From a virus (Duplodnaviria; Heunggongvirae; Uroviricota; Caudoviricetes), in the IMG/VR virus record IMGVR_UViG_3300028592_000006, positions 1 through 64,000 of that record: a DNA stretch of 64,000 bases. The stretch is one strand, 5' to 3'. A program made the translations under genes and the position numbers. Shown piece by piece: positions 941 through 39,140 of the stretch. The number at the start of each line of letters is the position of its first letter. The first letter of the stretch is position 1. A model generated the notes under the pieces. The model made no database searches and was not told the origin of the DNA. It saw only the letters and a program-made list of their open reading frames with translations.

Positions 941-2719
941 TCACCGGTGCAAGCGCCGGCCGCAGGTGGTCCCCAGCCCAATCTTCTTCTTCTTCTGGAG
1001 CCACCCGGAGTTCGCCATCTTCGCCACCTTCTGCACCTCCACCGACTGGAACCTCCCCGAGCTGATGGCGCGATCTGCTGCCAGCAGCAGGGCGTCACAG
1101 AGGTCAGAAGACTTCTTGAGCCGCTTCTTGGCCTCCTCCTTGGACTCCACCCGCAGCGTGCGTCCCTCCTTCGGGTGATACTCACGTTCGACCAGCTCCG
1201 ACACCACCTCCTTGCTCAGGCCCGTCACCTGCCCCGAGCGGATGTATTCCTTGAGCTGAATCCACAGCTCCGAGTTCTTGTTGTAGAACCCCACGTCCTC
1301 GTTGCGGAACACCACCGTGCGCTCGGAGGCCTTCCCCTGGAAGTTGATCTTGTTGACCGCCGGCGACCACTCCATGTCCACAATGTGGCCGAAGGGGGTC
1401 CCGCTGCCGGTATTGTCCATCGCCGCATTCGACGGCCTCACCTGCCAGTCCTTGCACAGTTCGATCCACTGCCGCGCAATCTGGTGCGAGTGCGCAACCG
1501 CCTTGTTGTTCACATCCTCTGCCAAGGTCGCGTAATGGCAGAAGTGCAGGTGATCCCGGCCGTCCACCTTCCCCAGCTTGGCAATGACGGCACAGGATCG
1601 GTCCCCGTTGCGCGAGAACGCAGGGTCCAGACCCGACAAGGCGGAAGGCTCGAGGTCCCACGCCGGCTCATCCATCGACATGGCTCCCGAATTCAACAGC
1701 TCGGTCTCGGAGTAAATCGAATTGGCAGCCCCGTCCGGGCACCAGAATGCCTTCACGAACCGGTAGTAACCACGCGACTTGGTGCCGCCGCGGGCATCCG
1801 CAATGCGAGTGCAATAGGCCCGGTCAGGTTGCCAGTAACACTTCGCCCGCCGGCCATTCTTCCAGTCCTCCTCGGTGAACGTGTCCTCCTCCTCGATGCG
1901 GGGCGACTTCTCGGCATTCAACCGGATGCACTCCCCGTATTTGGTCTCCCACTCCTCGTCGTCCTCGGTGATCGACTTCCACCCGGCCTTCGGCTCCGAC
2001 AACTCCGCGAACGGGTCCGTCAGCTTGTCCGGGTTGGCCATGCCGGCAAAGATCATCCGGTCATTGGATGTCATGTTCTCAAACGCCGTCTTGAGAATGC
2101 CGTCACCCAGCTCGTTGAACTCGTCCGCCGCCACCATCACACACGGGTTCTTGATGCCCAGAAGGTCCTTGCACGCCTGCTCCGCGTCCGAATTGCCGGC
2201 AGCCATCAGCACCACCCCGCTGTTGCGCCACAGCTTTCCGTTCTGGTCCACCCCCTTGATGTAGCCGTCCGAGTCAATCAACTTGCCAGGGCACCCTTTC
2301 TCCACCGCCTGCCCCCAGAACTGCGTGATCGACTTCCAGATACGCATCCGCGCCGCCTGCTTGGTCGTGGACATCACGATGAAGTAGGTCTCCGCCGGCC
2401 GCGCCCAATACAGCATCAAGCCAAACAACGCCACCGTGTCGGATTTCCCCGAGCTCGATGAGCCCGCAATGCCAAGGAAGCGCTTCTTCTGCCAGTCCCT
2501 CACCAGCTTGCGCAAGATCCACTCCGTCCACCGGTTCCACACCACCCGCCGGATCGAACCCTCGCAGTTGAACGCCAAATCAATGGCGGCCTTCAGGTTC
2601 TGATACCGCTGCTCAGGGGTGCGCTGGATGTCATTCCCCTCACCGGCACGGGCAAAGAGAAAGAGGTTGGCCGCAATGGGACAGGTCCCATCCGGAAACT
2701 CGTATCCGTCAACAATCAT
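941..2719 (-). CDS. terL: Terminase large subunit
   Basis: 592 aa; Walker A-like GIAGSSSSGKSD in N-terminal ATPase; C-terminal nuclease-like region (DNTGSG...); antisense ORF 947-2461 is R/L/H-rich and spurious. Confidence 0.85.
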   Translation of the reverse strand: MIVDGYEFPDGTCPIAANLFLFARAGEGNDIQRTPEQRYQNLKAAIDLAFNCEGSIRRVVWNRWTEWILRKLVRDWQKKRFLGIAGSSSSGKSDTVALFGLMLYWARPAETYFIVMSTTKQAARMRIWKSITQFWGQAVEKGCPGKLIDSDGYIKGVDQNGKLWRNSGVVLMAAGNSDAEQACKDLLGIKNPCVMVAADEFNELGDGILKTAFENMTSNDRMIFAGMANPDKLTDPFAELSEPKAGWKSITEDDEEWETKYGECIRLNAEKSPRIEEEDTFTEEDWKNGRRAKCYWQPDRAYCTRIADARGGTKSRGYYRFVKAFWCPDGAANSIYSETELLNSGAMSMDEPAWDLEPSALSGLDPAFSRNGDRSCAVIAKLGKVDGRDHLHFCHYATLAEDVNNKAVAHSHQIARQWIELCKDWQVRPSNAAMDNTGSGTPFGHIVDMEWSPAVNKINFQGKASERTVVFRNEDVGFYNKNSELWIQLKEYIRSGQVTGLSKEVVSELVEREYHPKEGRTLRVESKEEAKKRLKKSSDLCDALLLAADRAISSGRFQSVEVQKVAKMANSGWLQKKKKIGLGTTCGRRLHR

Positions 2720-5431: not shown

Positions 5432-6019
5432 TCACACATCCACCGTCACCTGCTTGGGGACAAACCCTTGGTTTGCAAGCACTGCTATGGAGACATTGGC
5501 TGTTGGTGCCTGTTGGCCTTCTGAGGGGTCGATGGCCTTGTCGAGGAGCTTTTGGGCTATTGCGGCCTCTTGGAATGAGGTGGGGATGGGAGACATGGCC
5601 CAGAAGCGTTCCATGGCCTTCTTGGCTCCTTGGTAGGATGCTTCACGTGATTGTTCGCCGCGTTGGGTCCATAGGGCAGCGAGGGCTTGGGCTGGATCAT
5701 TGGTTTCCTCCTTCGGGTTGTTCATGGCCCGTTGGATGCGTTGGGGTGTTGGCCATTGCTCCTTGTTGGCCCGTGAGTTGATGGTCTGCGGTTTGATGCC
5801 ATAGCGAGGGGCCAGCACGGTGGCGAGCTCACCGTGACAGTATAATGCGCGGATTACCGCCCAATCCTCATCCGAAACCTTCTTGTTCGGATTGCGCTGC
5901 ATCAGCACTGGCTTTTCTTCAGGCGGCATCGACTCGCTCATGGTTTCTTTATGGGATAAATCGCCCAAAAGCTCAACGTCAACTTCCCAAGTGGGTCTCG
6001 CCCTGATAGGGTCGCCCAT
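5432..6019 (-). CDS. HTH DNA-binding protein, candidate terminase small subunit
   Basis: HTH-like segment DEDWAVIRALYCHGELATVLAPRYGIKPQTINSRANKEQW; position upstream of terL in the same orientation; start uncertain (alternative Met at ~5941). Confidence 0.4.
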   Translation of the reverse strand: MGDPIRARPTWEVDVELLGDLSHKETMSESMPPEEKPVLMQRNPNKKVSDEDWAVIRALYCHGELATVLAPRYGIKPQTINSRANKEQWPTPQRIQRAMNNPKEETNDPAQALAALWTQRGEQSREASYQGAKKAMERFWAMSPIPTSFQEAAIAQKLLDKAIDPSEGQQAPTANVSIAVLANQGFVPKQVTVDV

Positions 6020-7073: not shown

Positions 7074-7450
7074 AAACACTCGCCATTACCGTGAATAAGT
7101 TCGGCCGGGATCACCCGGTGGCGGACCTTCACCTCTACTGCGGTCGGACACCCAAGATGCCGCTCATTCCACCCATGGTAGATGCAGGCTTGGGTAATCC
7201 GTTCTGGATGGGTTCTGAAAAAGACCGCGACCAAGTCTGCGAGCAATACGCCGACATGCTCGATGCCCAACCGCTGCACCCACACTGGAAGCGCATCCGC
7301 CGAATTGCTGAACACCTAGTGGCGGGTCGCTCGGTGGCTCTCTACTGCTACTGTGCTCCCAAGCGCTGCCATTGCGACACCATCCGGGCGCACGCCATCC
7401 GGATTGCAACCGAATGGACCACCGATGAGCGCTTCGCGCTGGAGCACTAA
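7070..7450 (+). CDS. DUF4326-like protein
   Basis: Motif LYCYCAPKRCHCDTI characteristic of DUF4326. Confidence 0.55.
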   Translation: MKTLAITVNKFGRDHPVADLHLYCGRTPKMPLIPPMVDAGLGNPFWMGSEKDRDQVCEQYADMLDAQPLHPHWKRIRRIAEHLVAGRSVALYCYCAPKRCHCDTIRAHAIRIATEWTTDERFALEH

Positions 7451-10036: not shown

Positions 10037-10084
10037 GGAACACGGGCCGGTCTGTCCCCGATTGGGGATGGACCGGCTTACCCT
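10037..10084 (+). terminator. Rho-independent terminator candidate
   Basis: CCGGTC...(inner CCCC/GGGG)...GACCGG stem followed by CTTACCCTTTTCTTTT. Confidence 0.5.
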
Positions 10085-10106
10085 TTTCTTTTAGACGGTC
10101 AATGCC

Positions 10107-10358
10107 ATGCGTAAGAAACCCATAGGCTACTTCGAGCAAGACGGTTCCTACAATGAACTGGACCCGCAACAGACTCCCAAGCTGAGAAAAAGACCGGCCA
10201 AAAAACTCGGCAGCATGGAGGAAGCATCCGCCCTTTCACTTGCTCCCGAAGATTTCATCCGTTGGCTCAGTCACCGGACTTACTGGCATGGCAATCAATA
10301 CCGGGCAGCTTGCTCGCGTTGGCTTGACCGGCAGCAAAAGCTCCAAGCCAGCAAGTAA
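10107..10358 (+). CDS. Hypothetical protein
   Basis: 83 aa ORF. Confidence 0.35.
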   Translation: MRKKPIGYFEQDGSYNELDPQQTPKLRKRPAKKLGSMEEASALSLAPEDFIRWLSHRTYWHGNQYRAACSRWLDRQQKLQASK

Positions 10359-10473
10359 CCACTTTCAATGTCACCGCGGCGTGGAAGGACACGCGAGCAC
10401 AACCACCTGCGCTCCTCGTGGAGTGGAGCGAGGACAGCCGGTTTCGAGTCCGGCCGGTGACACCTTTTGCAAT

Positions 10474-10578
10474 GCTGGAAGCCGCTCGGACGGAGACGAG
10501 CCCAAGTCGTAATTGATTCCTAGGTTCTCGGTTACGTGAGGTGAAAAACAAAGCGGGTTCAATTCCCGCCTTCCAGCA
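10474..10578 (+). tRNA. tRNA-like element (~102 nt): 8-9 bp acceptor-like closing stem, D-arm-like and canonical T-arm, oversized anticodon/variable region
   Basis: GCTGGAAG ... GCGGG-TTCAATT-CCCGC-CTTCCAGC; T-arm is canonical; the ~50 nt between D-arm and T-arm is too long for a standard tRNA. Confidence 0.35.
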
Positions 10579-10755
10579 ACCTCCTTCATGTAAGGGTAGT
10601 GCATAGCGCCGCATCTCCGGGTGAAGGTGCGGCCACCCCTTTCCTTTTTACCCGGTCAATCCCATGAGCACCCGTGCCACAGCATGCCTCGCTTCAAGCT
10701 TGTCCATCGTGTGGCCCTTGCTCTGGCTGGTTGTCATCCTGTTCCTTATTACACC

Positions 10756-11142
10756 ATGACCGACATCGAAAAACGCGTTGCCCTGGCTGAGTTTGCCGGC
10801 TGGAGGTTCCAATTCGAGATTCCCGGTGGGACATGGACCCGCGAGGTGGACCGTGAGACCAAGCTGGTTGCCACGTCCTGCTGGGTCAGGCCCGGTTCTC
10901 CCCCGTGGGAAACCGAACGGCTCCCACGCTACACCGATGACCTCAACCGGGTGCAGGACCTGATTTCCTTACTGCGGGACAAGGACATCCTACTCTACCG
11001 GGAGTATGCCCTGTATCTGGGAGTGATTCTGACGCGGTTCAACGTCTCCCCTGAACGCGAATCCTACCACCCCATCGAAACCTGCGATGCCACCGCCTCA
11101 ATGAGGTGCGATGCCATCGGACACGTCCTCAACCTCTGGTAA
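10756..11142 (+). CDS. Hypothetical protein
   Basis: Internal Met MTDIEKRVALAEF of ORF 10621-11142. Confidence 0.35.
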   Translation: MTDIEKRVALAEFAGWRFQFEIPGGTWTREVDRETKLVATSCWVRPGSPPWETERLPRYTDDLNRVQDLISLLRDKDILLYREYALYLGVILTRFNVSPERESYHPIETCDATASMRCDAIGHVLNLW

Positions 11143-28896: not shown

Positions 28897-29640
28897 ATGC
28901 ATTTGCACGAGCTACTGGCCGTAGAGGGCAATCAACAGACCCAGGCCAACAAGGTCCGCAAGGAACTCGAGTCCACCTTCGACAAGAAGCGACACCTGTT
29001 CGAGCGGAAGATTGTCACCTTCACTTCCAGCACCGAGGGATCGGAGCCGGTGGTTGAGGAACAATCGGACATCAACACCACGGTCTCGAAGGAGATCCAG
29101 TGGATCAAGGGACACCTGACCAAGGCTCTCGACCTTGAATACCAGATTGCCGAGACCAACACCATTGCCCGTGCGGACGTGGAGCTGGACGACGGATCGG
29201 TTCTACTCAAGGCGGTGCCTGCCACCTCGCTGCTGGAGCTACAGAAGCGCATGGCAGAGCTGCTGGAGCTGGCCAAGGCCATTCCCACCCTCGACCCTGC
29301 AAAGGGCTTCCAGGCCGATCCTGCGGCCGGGGAAGGGGTGTTCCAGGCACGCATCGTCAACCGGGACCGGACCAAGAAGGTGCCGAAGGCATTCGTTGCC
29401 TACGAGGCCACCAAGGAGCACCCGGCACAGGTCCAGATGTTCAACGAGGATATCAAGACCGGCACCATCACCACCCAGGAGTGGTCGGGGATGATGACGC
29501 CTGCCGACAAGGCGGCGGTGCTGGACCGCATCGAGTCCTTGACTCGCGCCATCCGTGCGGCACGCTCACGGGCGAACACCGCGGAGGTGGATCGCAAGAA
29601 CAAGATTGGCGATGCCATCTTCACCTACATTTTCGGGTAA
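28897..29640 (+). CDS. Hypothetical protein (247 aa)
   Basis: Balanced composition; last protein gene before tRNA-like cluster. Confidence 0.55.
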   Translation: MHLHELLAVEGNQQTQANKVRKELESTFDKKRHLFERKIVTFTSSTEGSEPVVEEQSDINTTVSKEIQWIKGHLTKALDLEYQIAETNTIARADVELDDGSVLLKAVPATSLLELQKRMAELLELAKAIPTLDPAKGFQADPAAGEGVFQARIVNRDRTKKVPKAFVAYEATKEHPAQVQMFNEDIKTGTITTQEWSGMMTPADKAAVLDRIESLTRAIRAARSRANTAEVDRKNKIGDAIFTYIFG

Positions 29641-29740: not shown

Positions 29741-29790
29741 ACCCAACCGCAGCCCGCCACCGAATGCAGGCATCCATCCAAATCCAGGCC

Positions 29791-29818
29791 GGGGGTTCGA
29801 ATCCCCTCTCCGACGCCA
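29791..29818 (+). tRNA. tRNA 3' fragment (T-arm GGGGG-TTCGAAT-CCCCT, acceptor 3' strand CTCCGAC, discriminator G, CCA)
   Basis: Canonical T-loop and CCA end; no matching 5' half upstream. Confidence 0.5.
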
Positions 29819-29845
29819 TCAGCCCATCACGGTGGGTTGATCATC

Positions 29846-29870
29846 GTCGGAGTAGCTCAGTGGTAGAGCA
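29846..29870 (+). tRNA. tRNA 5' fragment (acceptor GTCGGAG exactly complementary to upstream CTCCGAC, TA, D-arm GCTC-AGTGGTA-GAGC)
   Basis: Canonical D-arm; no foldable anticodon/T-arm/3' acceptor downstream. Confidence 0.45.
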
Positions 29871-29921
29871 TGGAGATCAGGTTCGAAAGGATGCTGTCGC
29901 CCGAGGGGCACCAGGCTGCAA

Positions 29922-29993
29922 AAGCGCATAGCTCAATAGTAGAGCATTCGACTTATAATCGAACGGTTGGGGGTGCGAATCCCCCTACGCAAG
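29922..29993 (+). tRNA. tRNA-like gene, anticodon UAU (Ile-type) with poorly paired acceptor stem
   Basis: D-arm GCTC-AATAGTA-GAGC, anticodon arm TTCGA-CTTATAA-TCGAA, variable CGGTT, T-arm GGGGG-TGCGAAT-CCCCC; acceptor 5' AAGCGCA vs 3' TACGCAA pairs only 4/7. Confidence 0.4.
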
Positions 29994-37835: not shown

Positions 37836-39140
37836 ATGAGCGAACCTGTCCAGATTCCGCAGTCGGAGCCTTCGGAGAAGTTCGTCATTTCCTCGTTCCT
37901 CCGGGACCCCTCGCTTATCGAGGAGTTCCCGGTGGAACCGGAGTGGTTCTTCCATCCCGGCAGACAGTTGATCCTCCAGACGATGCTGGATACCCGCATC
38001 CTCGACATCGCCCTGCTGGCCCAGCACATGGCCGACAAGGGGACCTTGGAGAGGGTGGGTGGTCCGGCCGAGATTGCCGGACTGCTCAACTACGCACAGG
38101 GGCCGGGGTTCAAGCAGCACCACAGGGAACTGAGGAACAAGCATGCCCGCAGGCTGGCCATCAATGCCCTCACGGCGGCGCTGAAGGCCTCTTACGACTG
38201 CGCGGACGACAACTGGCTGGACAAGCTCTCGGAGCCGCTCACCAGGGTCTTTGACGCTGCCAACGGGATCAAGCCGGTCCACAACCTCAAGCAACTGTCG
38301 GAGGACTTTCTCAAGCAATTCCTGGCGAAGGTGGAGGGAAAGGAAATGCCGATGGGTATTCCATTCGGCATCCCGATGATTGACGAGAAGCTTCGCGGAA
38401 TGCATTCCCAGCATTACGGGATCATTTCGGGGAGAAGCGGTTCTGGCAAATCAACCCTTGCGGTGGAAGTGTGGGGTAATCTTGCCGATGTCCACACCGG
38501 CGGGCTCTACCTCATTCTTGAGAGGACTGAGTCATCTGCATTCGCCAAAGCAGTCATCCAGGTGGCCAAGCTCCATCATGCCGCCATTGTCGATCCTATC
38601 GGCTACTGCGCCAGCCGCCAACAAAAGGGCCTCAACAAGGAGGAATTGAAGGCAATCCGCGACGCGGTCCAGAAGCTTTCGGAATCCAACTTGCACATCC
38701 GCAAGCCTCAATCCAGGGGTATTCATGAAATCACCGCGGAGATCCGCCGCTACGTCCGGCTGCACGGGGTCAAGGTGGTGTTTGTGGACCAGATCGGCCT
38801 GATCCGCGGGGATCGCTTCAAGGGGGAAACCCAGGAAGCGGAGCTGCGCAGGACATCAAACACCTTGCAGGAACTCAGTGACGAGCTTCACATCACCATC
38901 GTGGTCCTCTGCCAGGAGAACTTCGAGGGTGAGACCAAGAACGCCCGTGCGATAGAGGAAGACGCGGATTGGTGGTTGTCCATCGTGCAGGAGCGGGACA
39001 AACAGAAAGCTAACTTCGGGGAGCACAAGCACATCCTCATCGCCAAGGACAGCCATAACGGCCATGGAGGAGTGAGGCTTCCGCTGGTGCTCGACAAGGG
39101 AAGCCTGCGCTTCACCTACAAGCCCAATGCCGACGTGTGA
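37836..39140 (+). CDS. dnaB: DnaB-like replicative helicase
   Basis: N-terminal DnaB-like domain; Walker A GRSGSGKSTLA, Walker B VVFVDQIGLI, VVLCQENFEGETKNA; antisense ORF 37158-38414 is spurious. Confidence 0.8.
   Translation: MSEPVQIPQSEPSEKFVISSFLRDPSLIEEFPVEPEWFFHPGRQLILQTMLDTRILDIALLAQHMADKGTLERVGGPAEIAGLLNYAQGPGFKQHHRELRNKHARRLAINALTAALKASYDCADDNWLDKLSEPLTRVFDAANGIKPVHNLKQLSEDFLKQFLAKVEGKEMPMGIPFGIPMIDEKLRGMHSQHYGIISGRSGSGKSTLAVEVWGNLADVHTGGLYLILERTESSAFAKAVIQVAKLHHAAIVDPIGYCASRQQKGLNKEELKAIRDAVQKLSESNLHIRKPQSRGIHEITAEIRRYVRLHGVKVVFVDQIGLIRGDRFKGETQEAELRRTSNTLQELSDELHITIVVLCQENFEGETKNARAIEEDADWWLSIVQERDKQKANFGEHKHILIAKDSHNGHGGVRLPLVLDKGSLRFTYKPNADV

Follow-up and report, generated by a model that had tools for sequence, protein, structure and literature searches.

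To our knowledge, mimicry of tRNA by phage RNAs is known from a few isolated cases: the species 1 and 2 RNAs of bacteriophage T4, YrlA-like RNAs and phage transfer-messenger RNAs (tmRNAs). The T4 RNAs, products of rnaC and rnaD, are matured along with tRNAs and their function is still unknown; as far as we know, they are confined to T4-like phages, whereas the family described here spans proteobacterial and cyanobacterial phages. Mimicry of tRNA by mascRNA/MALAT1 and by the 3′ tRNA-like structures (TLS) of plant viruses recruits RNase P, RNase Z or the CCA-adding enzyme, which sets the ends or the stability of the RNA, and we know of no equivalent family curated for DNA phages. In tRNA itself, the stack of acceptor and T stems and the elbow formed by the D and T loops are read by RNase P, RNase Z, the CCA-adding enzyme and other elbow binders, and the T4 tRNAs without an encoded CCA require RNase BN and the host CCA-adding enzyme. 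The YrlA or bacterial Y RNA-like RNAs (Rfam RF02553; PMC4201824) are non-coding RNAs that mimic the T-arm, D-arm and acceptor of tRNA, and unusual stem lengths are described for selenocysteine tRNA (tRNA-Sec) and for allo-tRNAs with 8/5, 8/4 and 9/3 branches in bacteria and phages (PMC5389517). Here we describe two tRNA-shaped elements, A and B, found in tandem on the plus strand of a 64 000-nt stretch of phage DNA (Caudoviricetes; IMG/VR record IMGVR_UViG_3300028592_000006, positions 1–64 000; hereafter the window). They probably represent tRNA-mimicking, non-decoding RNAs that are matured like tRNAs and belong to a widespread phage RNA family.

Two tandem elements in a gene-free gap

The window is part of a tailed-phage genome with densely packed genes, and public gene calls on identical contigs leave few gaps in it. 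One of these gaps, at positions 10359–10755 (397 nt), holds both elements; no gene is called there, in agreement with the non-coding region of ∼400 bp that an earlier, sequence-only reading had proposed.

Element A (10370–10461) is defined by its sequence, its predicted fold and two covariance models, R1 and R2, introduced below. Its 7-bp closing stem, GTCACCG/CGGTGAC (10370–10376 with 10455–10461), encloses a CG linker (10377–10378), a D-like hairpin GCGTG-GAAGGA-CACGC with the loop GAAGGA (10379–10394), a variable centre of 42 nt (10395–10436) and a T-like hairpin with the 8-nt loop TTTCGAGT (10437–10454). U10369 takes the −1 position and A10462 the discriminator-like position. The sequence-only reading had described a single element with a second hairpin nearby, the one with the TTTCGAGT loop. 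That hairpin is real, yet it does not stand alone: it forms the T-like arm of the complete element A, which had been missed, and the gap contains two tandem elements.

Element B begins after a spacing of 13 nt and extends over 10475–10576, with a stem extendable to 10473–10578; it is supported by sequence, folds, the descriptor given below and both covariance models. Two further pairs (10473–10474 with 10577–10578) continue its 7-bp closing stem (10475–10481 with 10570–10576), so that GCTGGAAG (10474–10481) pairs with CTTCCAGC (10570–10577) and the addition of T10473/A10578 makes 9 bp. The stem is followed by a CC linker (10482–10483), a D-like hairpin GCTCG-GACGGAGA-CGAGC with an 8-nt loop (10484–10501), a centre of 51 nt between the two hairpins (10502–10552) and the T-arm GCGGG-TTCAATT-CCCGC with a canonical 7-nt loop (10553–10569), which abuts the closing stem. 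The centre has a hairpin of its own (10508–10536), of 9 bp with an 11-nt loop that carries the palindrome CCUAGG. Thus, the 102-nt element proposed from the letters alone, with its closing stem of 8–9 bp, D-arm-like hairpin, T-arm and centre of ∼50 nt, is confirmed in all its parts by sequence and fold. Both elements are on the plus strand, which is the strand of the flanking genes, and the z-scores of their minimum free energies are −2.6 (A) and −2.5 (B).

A and B look tRNA-like because each has an acceptor-type stem of 7 bp stacked on a 5-bp T stem, a UCRA motif in the T loop and a GG in the D loop. A purely structural descriptor was composed of a closing stem of 7 bp, two linker nucleotides, a hairpin of 5 bp with GG in its loop, a centre of 25–174 nt and a second 5-bp hairpin, which has UCRA in its loop and adjoins the closing stem. 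Its sole matches in the window are A and B; in 40 shuffled windows it gave two matches (0.05 per window).

Neither A nor B qualifies as a canonical tRNA. ARAGORN with default settings reports no tRNA or tmRNA gene in the window. Rfam yields nothing at the A/B locus at gathering threshold (29 bits for the tRNA model) and, with both strands searched, no hammerhead or other known ribozyme; in the 600-nt slice 10200–10800, the Rfam tRNA, tRNA-Sec and tmRNA models have no match even at E ≤ 10. ARAGORN calls A and B solely with the options -ps or -i -ps. At the relaxed threshold A becomes a type-II-like 'tRNA-???' with an 8-nt anticodon loop and the 4-nt anticodon 'acca', while B is named 'Pro(CGG)' with a 19-nt intron solely when intron search is combined with a lowered threshold. 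The latter call carries no weight, since in this mode shuffled windows yield ∼3.7 calls each. In the segment that separates the D and T arms of A and B, we found no 5-bp anticodon stem with a 7-nt loop having U33 and a purine at position 37; the best candidate in A has a mismatched stem and an 8-nt loop, CAACCACC, without U33. At positions 3–70, A has a C-G pair and B a G-C pair. Elsewhere in the window, a 'tRNA-Ser' reported by ARAGORN with -ps at 5539–5629 is weak, mismatched and located within a coding open reading frame (ORF), and was rejected as a chance match.

A widespread family of phage elements

The two loops of A, used as the pattern GGAAGGACAC-N(35-65)-GGTTTCGAGTCC, retrieved six IMG/VR loci in which the closing stems differ yet stay complementary and the D-like and T-like stems carry compensatory changes. 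The covariance model built from these six loci (R1) found a second copy in one of the six phages and also matched B. With the D-like hairpin alone (GGYGTGGAAGGACACRC), at least 120 IMG/VR loci were obtained; a full-length model match, with closing stem and T-like hairpin, is present in ∼95 of the first 100, and the other 20 are alike. When the D stem was left free (GAAGGA-N(45-75)-CCGGTATCAAGCCCGG), 74 loci were returned, 66 of them new, where by our estimate ∼0.25 would be expected by chance; among the 62 distinct new occurrences, 51 have all five D-stem pairs intact. Altogether, the family comprises more than 180 IMG/VR loci with at least ∼150 distinct sequences. The A-type pattern with a short gap (5–35 nt) has no match in IMG/VR.

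The element is also present in five isolated phages, Acidovorax phage AP1, Caulobacter phage DMCA, Pseudanabaena phage Pan3, Komagataeibacter phage phiKX1 and Alcaligenes phage QDWS595, and in the GenBank records of all five it lies in unannotated intergenic DNA. Phages of the family infect alpha- and beta-proteobacteria and cyanobacteria; the GC content of the elements ranges from 43% to 71% with the loops remaining identical. Two further candidates, Tsukamurella phage TPA2 and a faecal 'Bacteriophage sp.' contig, have the D motif alone with no T-like hairpin and were set aside as chance matches. In bacterial genomes scanned with the pattern of A, the two matches observed both fall in the coding 5′ end of a Nocardia gene, i.e. 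are due to chance. No model of Rfam 15 matches the family members, save for a tRNA-like module inside the centre of the Pan3 element. Texts searched for the conserved strings, for phage tRNA-like RNAs and for decoys contained no description of the family, though it may be present, uncharacterised, in a 2023 catalogue (PMC10690425) that lists 10,006 candidate structured RNAs of viruses.

A second model, R2, was built from 62 elements of other phages with the window excluded, and was run on the whole window with filters off. Element A scores 87.8 bits on R1 and 72.2 bits (E = 1.3e-15) on R2. Judged by these models, A can be taken as a bona fide, clear family member, because the noise of the window outside A and B does not exceed 9.3 bits on R2 and real tRNAs reach at most 16 bits on R1. 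Element B scores 27.5 bits (E = 2e-4) on R1 and 24.9 bits (E = 5e-4) on R2, where the next window match is at 9.3 bits. Its D stem, GCTCG/CGAGC, is within the range of the family (ACUCG/CGAGU occurs in the locus labelled L146) and encloses the 8-nt loop GACGGAGA; its T loop TTCAATT (7 nt) retains UCAA without the extra 5′ nucleotide of the family. With moderate confidence, B may be regarded as a divergent paralogue or a sister built on the same plan as A.

In the family as a whole, the closing helix has 7 bp; it is often lengthened by a U(−1)/A(+1) pair and runs 4–14 bp past the 7 bp in about a quarter of the members, a 2-bp leader/trailer extension like that of B being present in 20 of 97. 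The 2-nt linker is CG in most members and the D-like hairpin has 5 bp and a 6-nt loop, GA-N-GGA; linker and hairpin of A have exactly this form. The centre (32–163 nt; that of A is among the shortest) is hypervariable, with heterogeneous predicted folds that are mostly local hairpins, and comparison of the centres revealed no shared k-mer or motif and no conserved anticodon stem-loop. On its 3′ side stand a conserved A and a 5-bp T-like hairpin with an 8-nt loop, U-N-UCRA-NN, whose positions 3–6 (UCRA) are the equivalent of tRNA positions 55–58. The commonest loop is UAUCAAGC; the loop of A, TTTCGAGT, is a minority variant (2 of 83 members). From the T-like hairpin the chain passes without a gap into the 3′ strand of the closing helix.

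The helices are supported by covariation. In the alignment of 93 distinct sequences, which was fitted to the model, 98.9% of the cells are paired and compensatory double changes occur in 13 of 17 pairs, a level reached by none of 500 shuffles. All seven closing pairs and all five T-stem pairs covary, and each closing pair takes all four Watson–Crick types. For the D stem, the search in which it was left free gave at least 10 compensatory sequence pairs, such as GCGCU/AGCGC, GCACG/CGUGC and ACUCG/CGAGU; in QDWS595 the stem is UCGAU/AUCGA. A G3:U70 pair is present in 3 of 93 members.

One of the 98 elements, that of Pan3 (L142:2498-2658; ON968454.1 36564-36724), has a tRNA-like module nested in its variable centre. 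The module scores 34.9 bits with the Rfam tRNA model and has a 5-bp acceptor stem and a shortened anticodon region; it is the sole case of this kind.

Genomic context of the family

Phages with a tRNA array carry the element within that array, on the strand of the tRNA genes and at 2–22 nt from the adjacent tRNAs, as seen in seven independent arrays (L043, L059, L061/L107, L063, L078, L099 and L119). U at position −1 and A at the discriminator-like position are each present in 40 of 97 elements, and both are enriched. An NCCA tail is found in none of 62 elements, even where the neighbouring tRNA genes encode CCA. Most elements share the orientation of the neighbouring genes and some copies are antisense to both neighbours; doubled or tandem copies occur in L052, L082, L046 and L011 as well as in the window. 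No neighbouring protein is conserved, with no protein cluster present in more than four loci, and this lack of a recurring partner gene points to a partner on the side of the host. In L095 a family element follows a genuine permuted tmRNA at 46 nt, in QDWS595 a permuted tmRNA lies ∼2 kb from the element with tRNAs nearby, and in DMCA the element is ∼360 nt past the 3′ end of an integrase gene.

The array of L107 also has an unusual tRNA. At L107:9764-9856, 99 nt upstream of the family element, ARAGORN predicts a 93-nt 'tRNA-Trp(CCA)' that has 8 bp in the acceptor stem and 6 bp in the anticodon stem, carries a long variable arm and encodes CCA. Its shape is like that of tRNA-Sec or allo-tRNA. 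Another arrangement is seen in L011:11042-12590 (also in L009 and L013), where two elements flank a clamp-loader-like gene; their frames (closing, D and T helices) are identical and their centres differ. Each of them has a 20-nt copy of its own 3′ end (AGTCCTGCCAGGrrCAATAA) 177/178 nt downstream, with a small ORF in between. This layout, which resembles attL/attR or an alternative pairing, is confined to that phage lineage; the window contains no such partial 3′ copies of A or B, both 3′ ends being single-copy. Also, the longest antisense matches of the A and B centres within the window are 10–11 nt, which is the level of shuffled sequences.

No DNA similarity to the window or to the A/B locus was detected among GenBank phages. 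Relatives of the window phage (L001–L008) identified through a 583-amino acid protein lack any element resembling A or B at the syntenic site, which is occupied by a tmRNA in L002 and just by uncalled ORFs in L005. The tmRNA of L002, a distant relative with 33% identity in the 583-amino acid protein, is a one-piece molecule (L002:8288-8696) with 121 bits in Rfam and the ARAGORN tag ADSNEFAPSVEEANNILEFHGFVERELAAA.

Interpretation and alternative explanations

Most economically, A and B are read as tRNA mimics matured like tRNAs, because the conserved parts are those of the elbow and acceptor and because members of the family sit in tRNA arrays. The family keeps the coaxial acceptor/T stack and the elbow of D and T loops, and a hypervariable, mostly structured domain stands in place of the anticodon and variable arms. 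The RNAs would be transcribed together with neighbouring genes or tRNAs and excised by host enzymes: RNase P would generate the 5′ end and an activity of the RNase Z/BN type the 3′ end, and addition of CCA might follow the 3′ cut, as it does for the CCA-less T4 tRNAs. Stable L-shaped mimics would then accumulate without decoding codons, with the conserved elbow and acceptor stack serving as an interface to the tRNA-binding machinery of the host and the variable domain being a lineage-specific payload, or merely unconstrained.

Several observations weigh against this interpretation. Long closing helices are atypical for a substrate of RNase P, and some copies could be embedded in longer transcripts; maturation by RNase P and RNase Z is itself something that we infer from context. 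The family alignment was fitted to a model and most members were retrieved by patterns that fix one or both loops; loop conservation is thus partly imposed by the search. The place of B in the family is of moderate strength, coming from one moderate model score and the architecture: its loops (8 nt in the D hairpin, 7 nt in the T hairpin) are unlike those of the family, and no orthologue of B was retrieved from IMG/VR by two patterns, the exact 25-nt 3′ end and the combination of D loop and T loop (0 matches each). Restriction of the family to phages is a weak claim, the bacterial scan having used the minority T-loop variant of A.

Among other explanations, a purely cis-acting role is the least unlikely. 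The elements would then be 'punctuation' or stability modules, recognised by RNase P/Z or blocking 3′ exonucleases, and the excised RNA would have no function in trans. Such modules would explain why conservation is limited to the acceptor/T stack and the elbow, i.e. to features recognised by RNase P, with the sequence of the centre unconstrained; moreover, most copies lie between co-oriented genes, A and B come directly after an 83-amino acid ORF, and the L011 copies are placed just upstream of gene starts with Shine–Dalgarno sequence and ATG. Still, we consider this rather unlikely: copies within tRNA arrays would be redundant as processing sites, those of L010, L118 and L064 are antisense to both neighbours and look like independent genes, tandem duplicates with differing centres are common, and a centre of 32–163 nt, mostly with predicted local hairpins, is kept everywhere and never deleted. 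Decoding by non-canonical tRNAs (quadruplet or odd-loop, tRNA-Sec- or allo-tRNA-like, or with introns removed by an unknown activity) is much harder to accept. The relaxed ARAGORN calls (type-II-like with 'acca' for A, intron-bearing Pro(CGG) for B), the occurrence in tRNA arrays and the neighbouring tRNA-Trp of L107, with its 8-bp acceptor stem and long variable arm, could be taken in its favour. However, the Rfam tRNA and tRNA-Sec models are silent at E ≤ 10 and ARAGORN at default, and the intron call is at the level of noise, which also leaves the earlier suggestion of a degenerate or intron-bearing tRNA unsupported; the putative loop of A has no U33, there is no family-wide anticodon stem-loop with centres of 32–163 nt, CCA is not encoded, G3:U70 occurs in just 3 of 93 members, and the near-invariant D-like loop favours one function over many isoacceptors. 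We give as little credence to a tmRNA-derived or tmRNA-like ribosome-rescue RNA, either a miniaturised tRNA-like domain or a partner of tmRNA. A genuine tmRNA does occupy the syntenic position in L002, elements are located near permuted tmRNAs in L095 and QDWS595, and conservation at the two ends alone is a property of tmRNA as well; but the elements have no match to the Rfam tmRNA family and no G3:U70 alanine identity, inspection of the centres by eye, with no explicit scan of reading frames, showed neither a conserved resume codon nor a tag frame, CCA is not encoded, and the D region forms a closed hairpin of 5 bp, in contrast to the D-loop analogue of tmRNA.

An attP core, or an integration site that mimics a host tRNA gene, had been another suggestion of the sequence-only reading. 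A tRNA-like sequence adjoining an integrase gene is the classical attP layout, and the DMCA element lies close to such a gene. Even so, integration is an extremely unlikely explanation, given that a scan of 88 window ORFs, covering all but the 4652-amino acid ORF, revealed no integrase, that the elements fold completely, each with a 5′ strand of its own, instead of being 3′ tRNA fragments, that closing-stem sequences vary between phages while the family-specific D-like loop, matching no host tRNA type, stays, that many copies are inside phage tRNA arrays and that the 3′ ends of A and B occur once in the window. Equally little can be said for decaying tRNA pseudogenes or a functionless chance fold. 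The silence of standard detectors on A and B and the lack of identified orthologues of B would fit, but against it stand the more than 180 loci and the five isolated phages that carry the family, the compensatory changes in each of the three helices, the loops identical across elements of 43%–71% GC and the descriptor background of 0.05 matches per window. A decayed pseudogene is unsupported because it would not show family-wide covariation, and for A the pseudogene or chance-fold explanation is already contradicted. What stands of the earlier suggestions is the structured non-coding RNA, supported by the folds, the covariance models and the covariation of the family.

Returning to tRNA mimics matured like tRNAs, their biological role is a matter of speculation, for instance a decoy or sponge in tRNA conflicts, or a processing and stability module. 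More tentatively, the family could be an undescribed 'tRNA-scaffold' class, in which the top half of a tRNA matures, stabilises and docks a fast-evolving domain that acts in trans on the host, with A and B as diversified paralogues. Such a domain might serve as a decoy, sponge or adaptor, directed at the tRNA-binding machinery or at anti-phage defences that target tRNAs; alternatively, once CCA has been added, the RNA might be a chargeable, tmRNA-like effector. In any case, the family is recurrent and covarying, is missed by tRNA finders, is absent from Rfam 15 and is unannotated in its GenBank carriers. It would account for many 'empty' intergenic gaps in phage genomes and would be a natural case of a tRNA scaffold bearing a variable RNA domain. 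Since five cultured phage–host pairs are available, it offers a testable handle on how phages use, or interfere with, host tRNA processing and tRNA-directed immunity.

Surroundings of the elements in the window

Upstream of A, an 83-amino acid ORF (10107–10358, plus strand), a called gene on the identical public contigs with no match in Pfam or PHROG, stops 11 nt before the element and probably shares a transcript with A and B, as we infer from the layout. It is preceded by a strong hairpin with a T-rich tail, like that of an intrinsic terminator (10044–10079, plus strand; terminator scan), which ends the upstream gene for a 160-amino acid protein without relatives found in IMG/VR. The fold of this hairpin has a z-score of −3.5, with none of 200 shuffles equally stable, and homologous hairpins are present at the matching position in L007 and L008; it marks the start of the unit with the 83-amino acid ORF, A and B. 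A 21-nt direct repeat, TTTTAnnCGGTCAATnCCATG, forms the left (10089–10109) and right (10646–10666) borders of a 557-bp unit on the plus strand, and its exact core, GGTCAATNCCATG, occurs in the window just twice, once per repeat copy. The terminator and the repeats bracketing 557 bp suggest one transcription unit made of the 83-amino acid ORF, A and B. At the second copy, a T-rich tract and merely a weak hairpin precede the repeat; a terminator after B is unsupported, the fold of 10577–10662 being no better than those of shuffled sequences (z = −0.35).

The repeat resembles a gene-start or promoter-like motif. Relatives share the layout 'terminator hairpin, T-run, TCAAT, ATG', and this shared layout suggests a phage-specific promoter, a leaderless-start motif or cassette borders. 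A hydrophobic ORF of 31 amino acids, MSTRATACLASSLSIVWPLLWLVVILFLITP (10664–10759, plus strand), starts at the second repeat copy and overlaps the start of a 128-amino acid gene (ATGA); the public contigs have no gene call for it.

Elsewhere, the window encodes the large terminase subunit (941–2719, minus strand), a DnaB-type helicase (37836–39140), an ERF recombinase and the 4652-amino acid ORF. A sub-threshold match to YrlA is located at 29761–29902 on the plus strand (33.6 bits, with the gathering score at 69; E = 0.0018). Directly after it, at 29924–29991 (plus strand), Rfam detects a tRNA with 54 bits and the anticodon loop CUUAUAA (UAU); its acceptor stem has just five pairs and ARAGORN misses it even at relaxed thresholds. 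The ORF just upstream of the YrlA-like match (28897–29640) is a DUF7873 protein. Two of the small proteins encoded by ORFs between 6786 and 44308 match HAD_SAK_2 (E = 2e-25), the HAD domain of 'Swiss army knife' RNA-repair proteins, and HD_4. The HAD_SAK_2, HD_4 and DUF7873 proteins hint at RNA repair or tRNA conflict as a theme of this phage. In relatives of the window phage, the same early-gene region has motifs of self-cleaving ribozymes, a Pistol ribozyme in L007:4527-4587 (64.7 bits, above gathering score) and two twister-P1-like motifs in L006:6928-6979 and 7324-7382 (54–58 bits, just under the gathering score of 67).

Comparison with known systems

The family resembles T4 rnaC and rnaD in being phage-encoded and found beside tRNA genes, and the 3′ end of rnaC is likewise a T-arm with an acceptor-like stem. 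There is, however, no sequence or profile similarity between them: with filters off, R1 scores rnaC at 8 bits and has no match to rnaD, and neither RNA has the D-like hairpin with the GA-N-GGA loop or the T-like loop of 8 nt that are typical of the family.

In the Rfam consensus of YrlA a T-arm, an acceptor-like hairpin and a D-arm are visible, as in the family. The topology of YrlA is permuted, with an acceptor closed by a loop and both ends in the Ro-binding stem, and the RNA binds Rsr/Ro60, whereas the topology of the family is that of a normal tRNA; no YrlA match is present at 10200–10800, and no neighbour gene such as rsr is conserved around the elements.

With the tRNA-like domain of tmRNA the family shares an acceptor/T-arm stack and an elbow, located at the two ends of the RNA, around a long, poorly conserved insert. 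It differs in having no G3:U70, no tag reading frame (by eye), no series of pseudoknots, no encoded CCA and no Rfam match, and in its D region, which is a closed hairpin.

The closing stem of B can be read as 8–9 bp over a 5-bp T stem, as in allo-tRNAs; in terms of the family it is 7 + 2 bp. tRNA-Sec and the allo-tRNAs have a recognisable anticodon stem-loop and a variable arm and are charged, in contrast to the family with no conserved anticodon arm or CCA.

mascRNA/MALAT1 and the plant-virus TLS are eukaryotic or RNA-virus systems; the family described here belongs to DNA phages, and its cleavage would be analogous, as suggested by context. It is new at the level of the family, the kind to which it belongs, tRNA-mimicking non-coding RNAs of phages, being already known.

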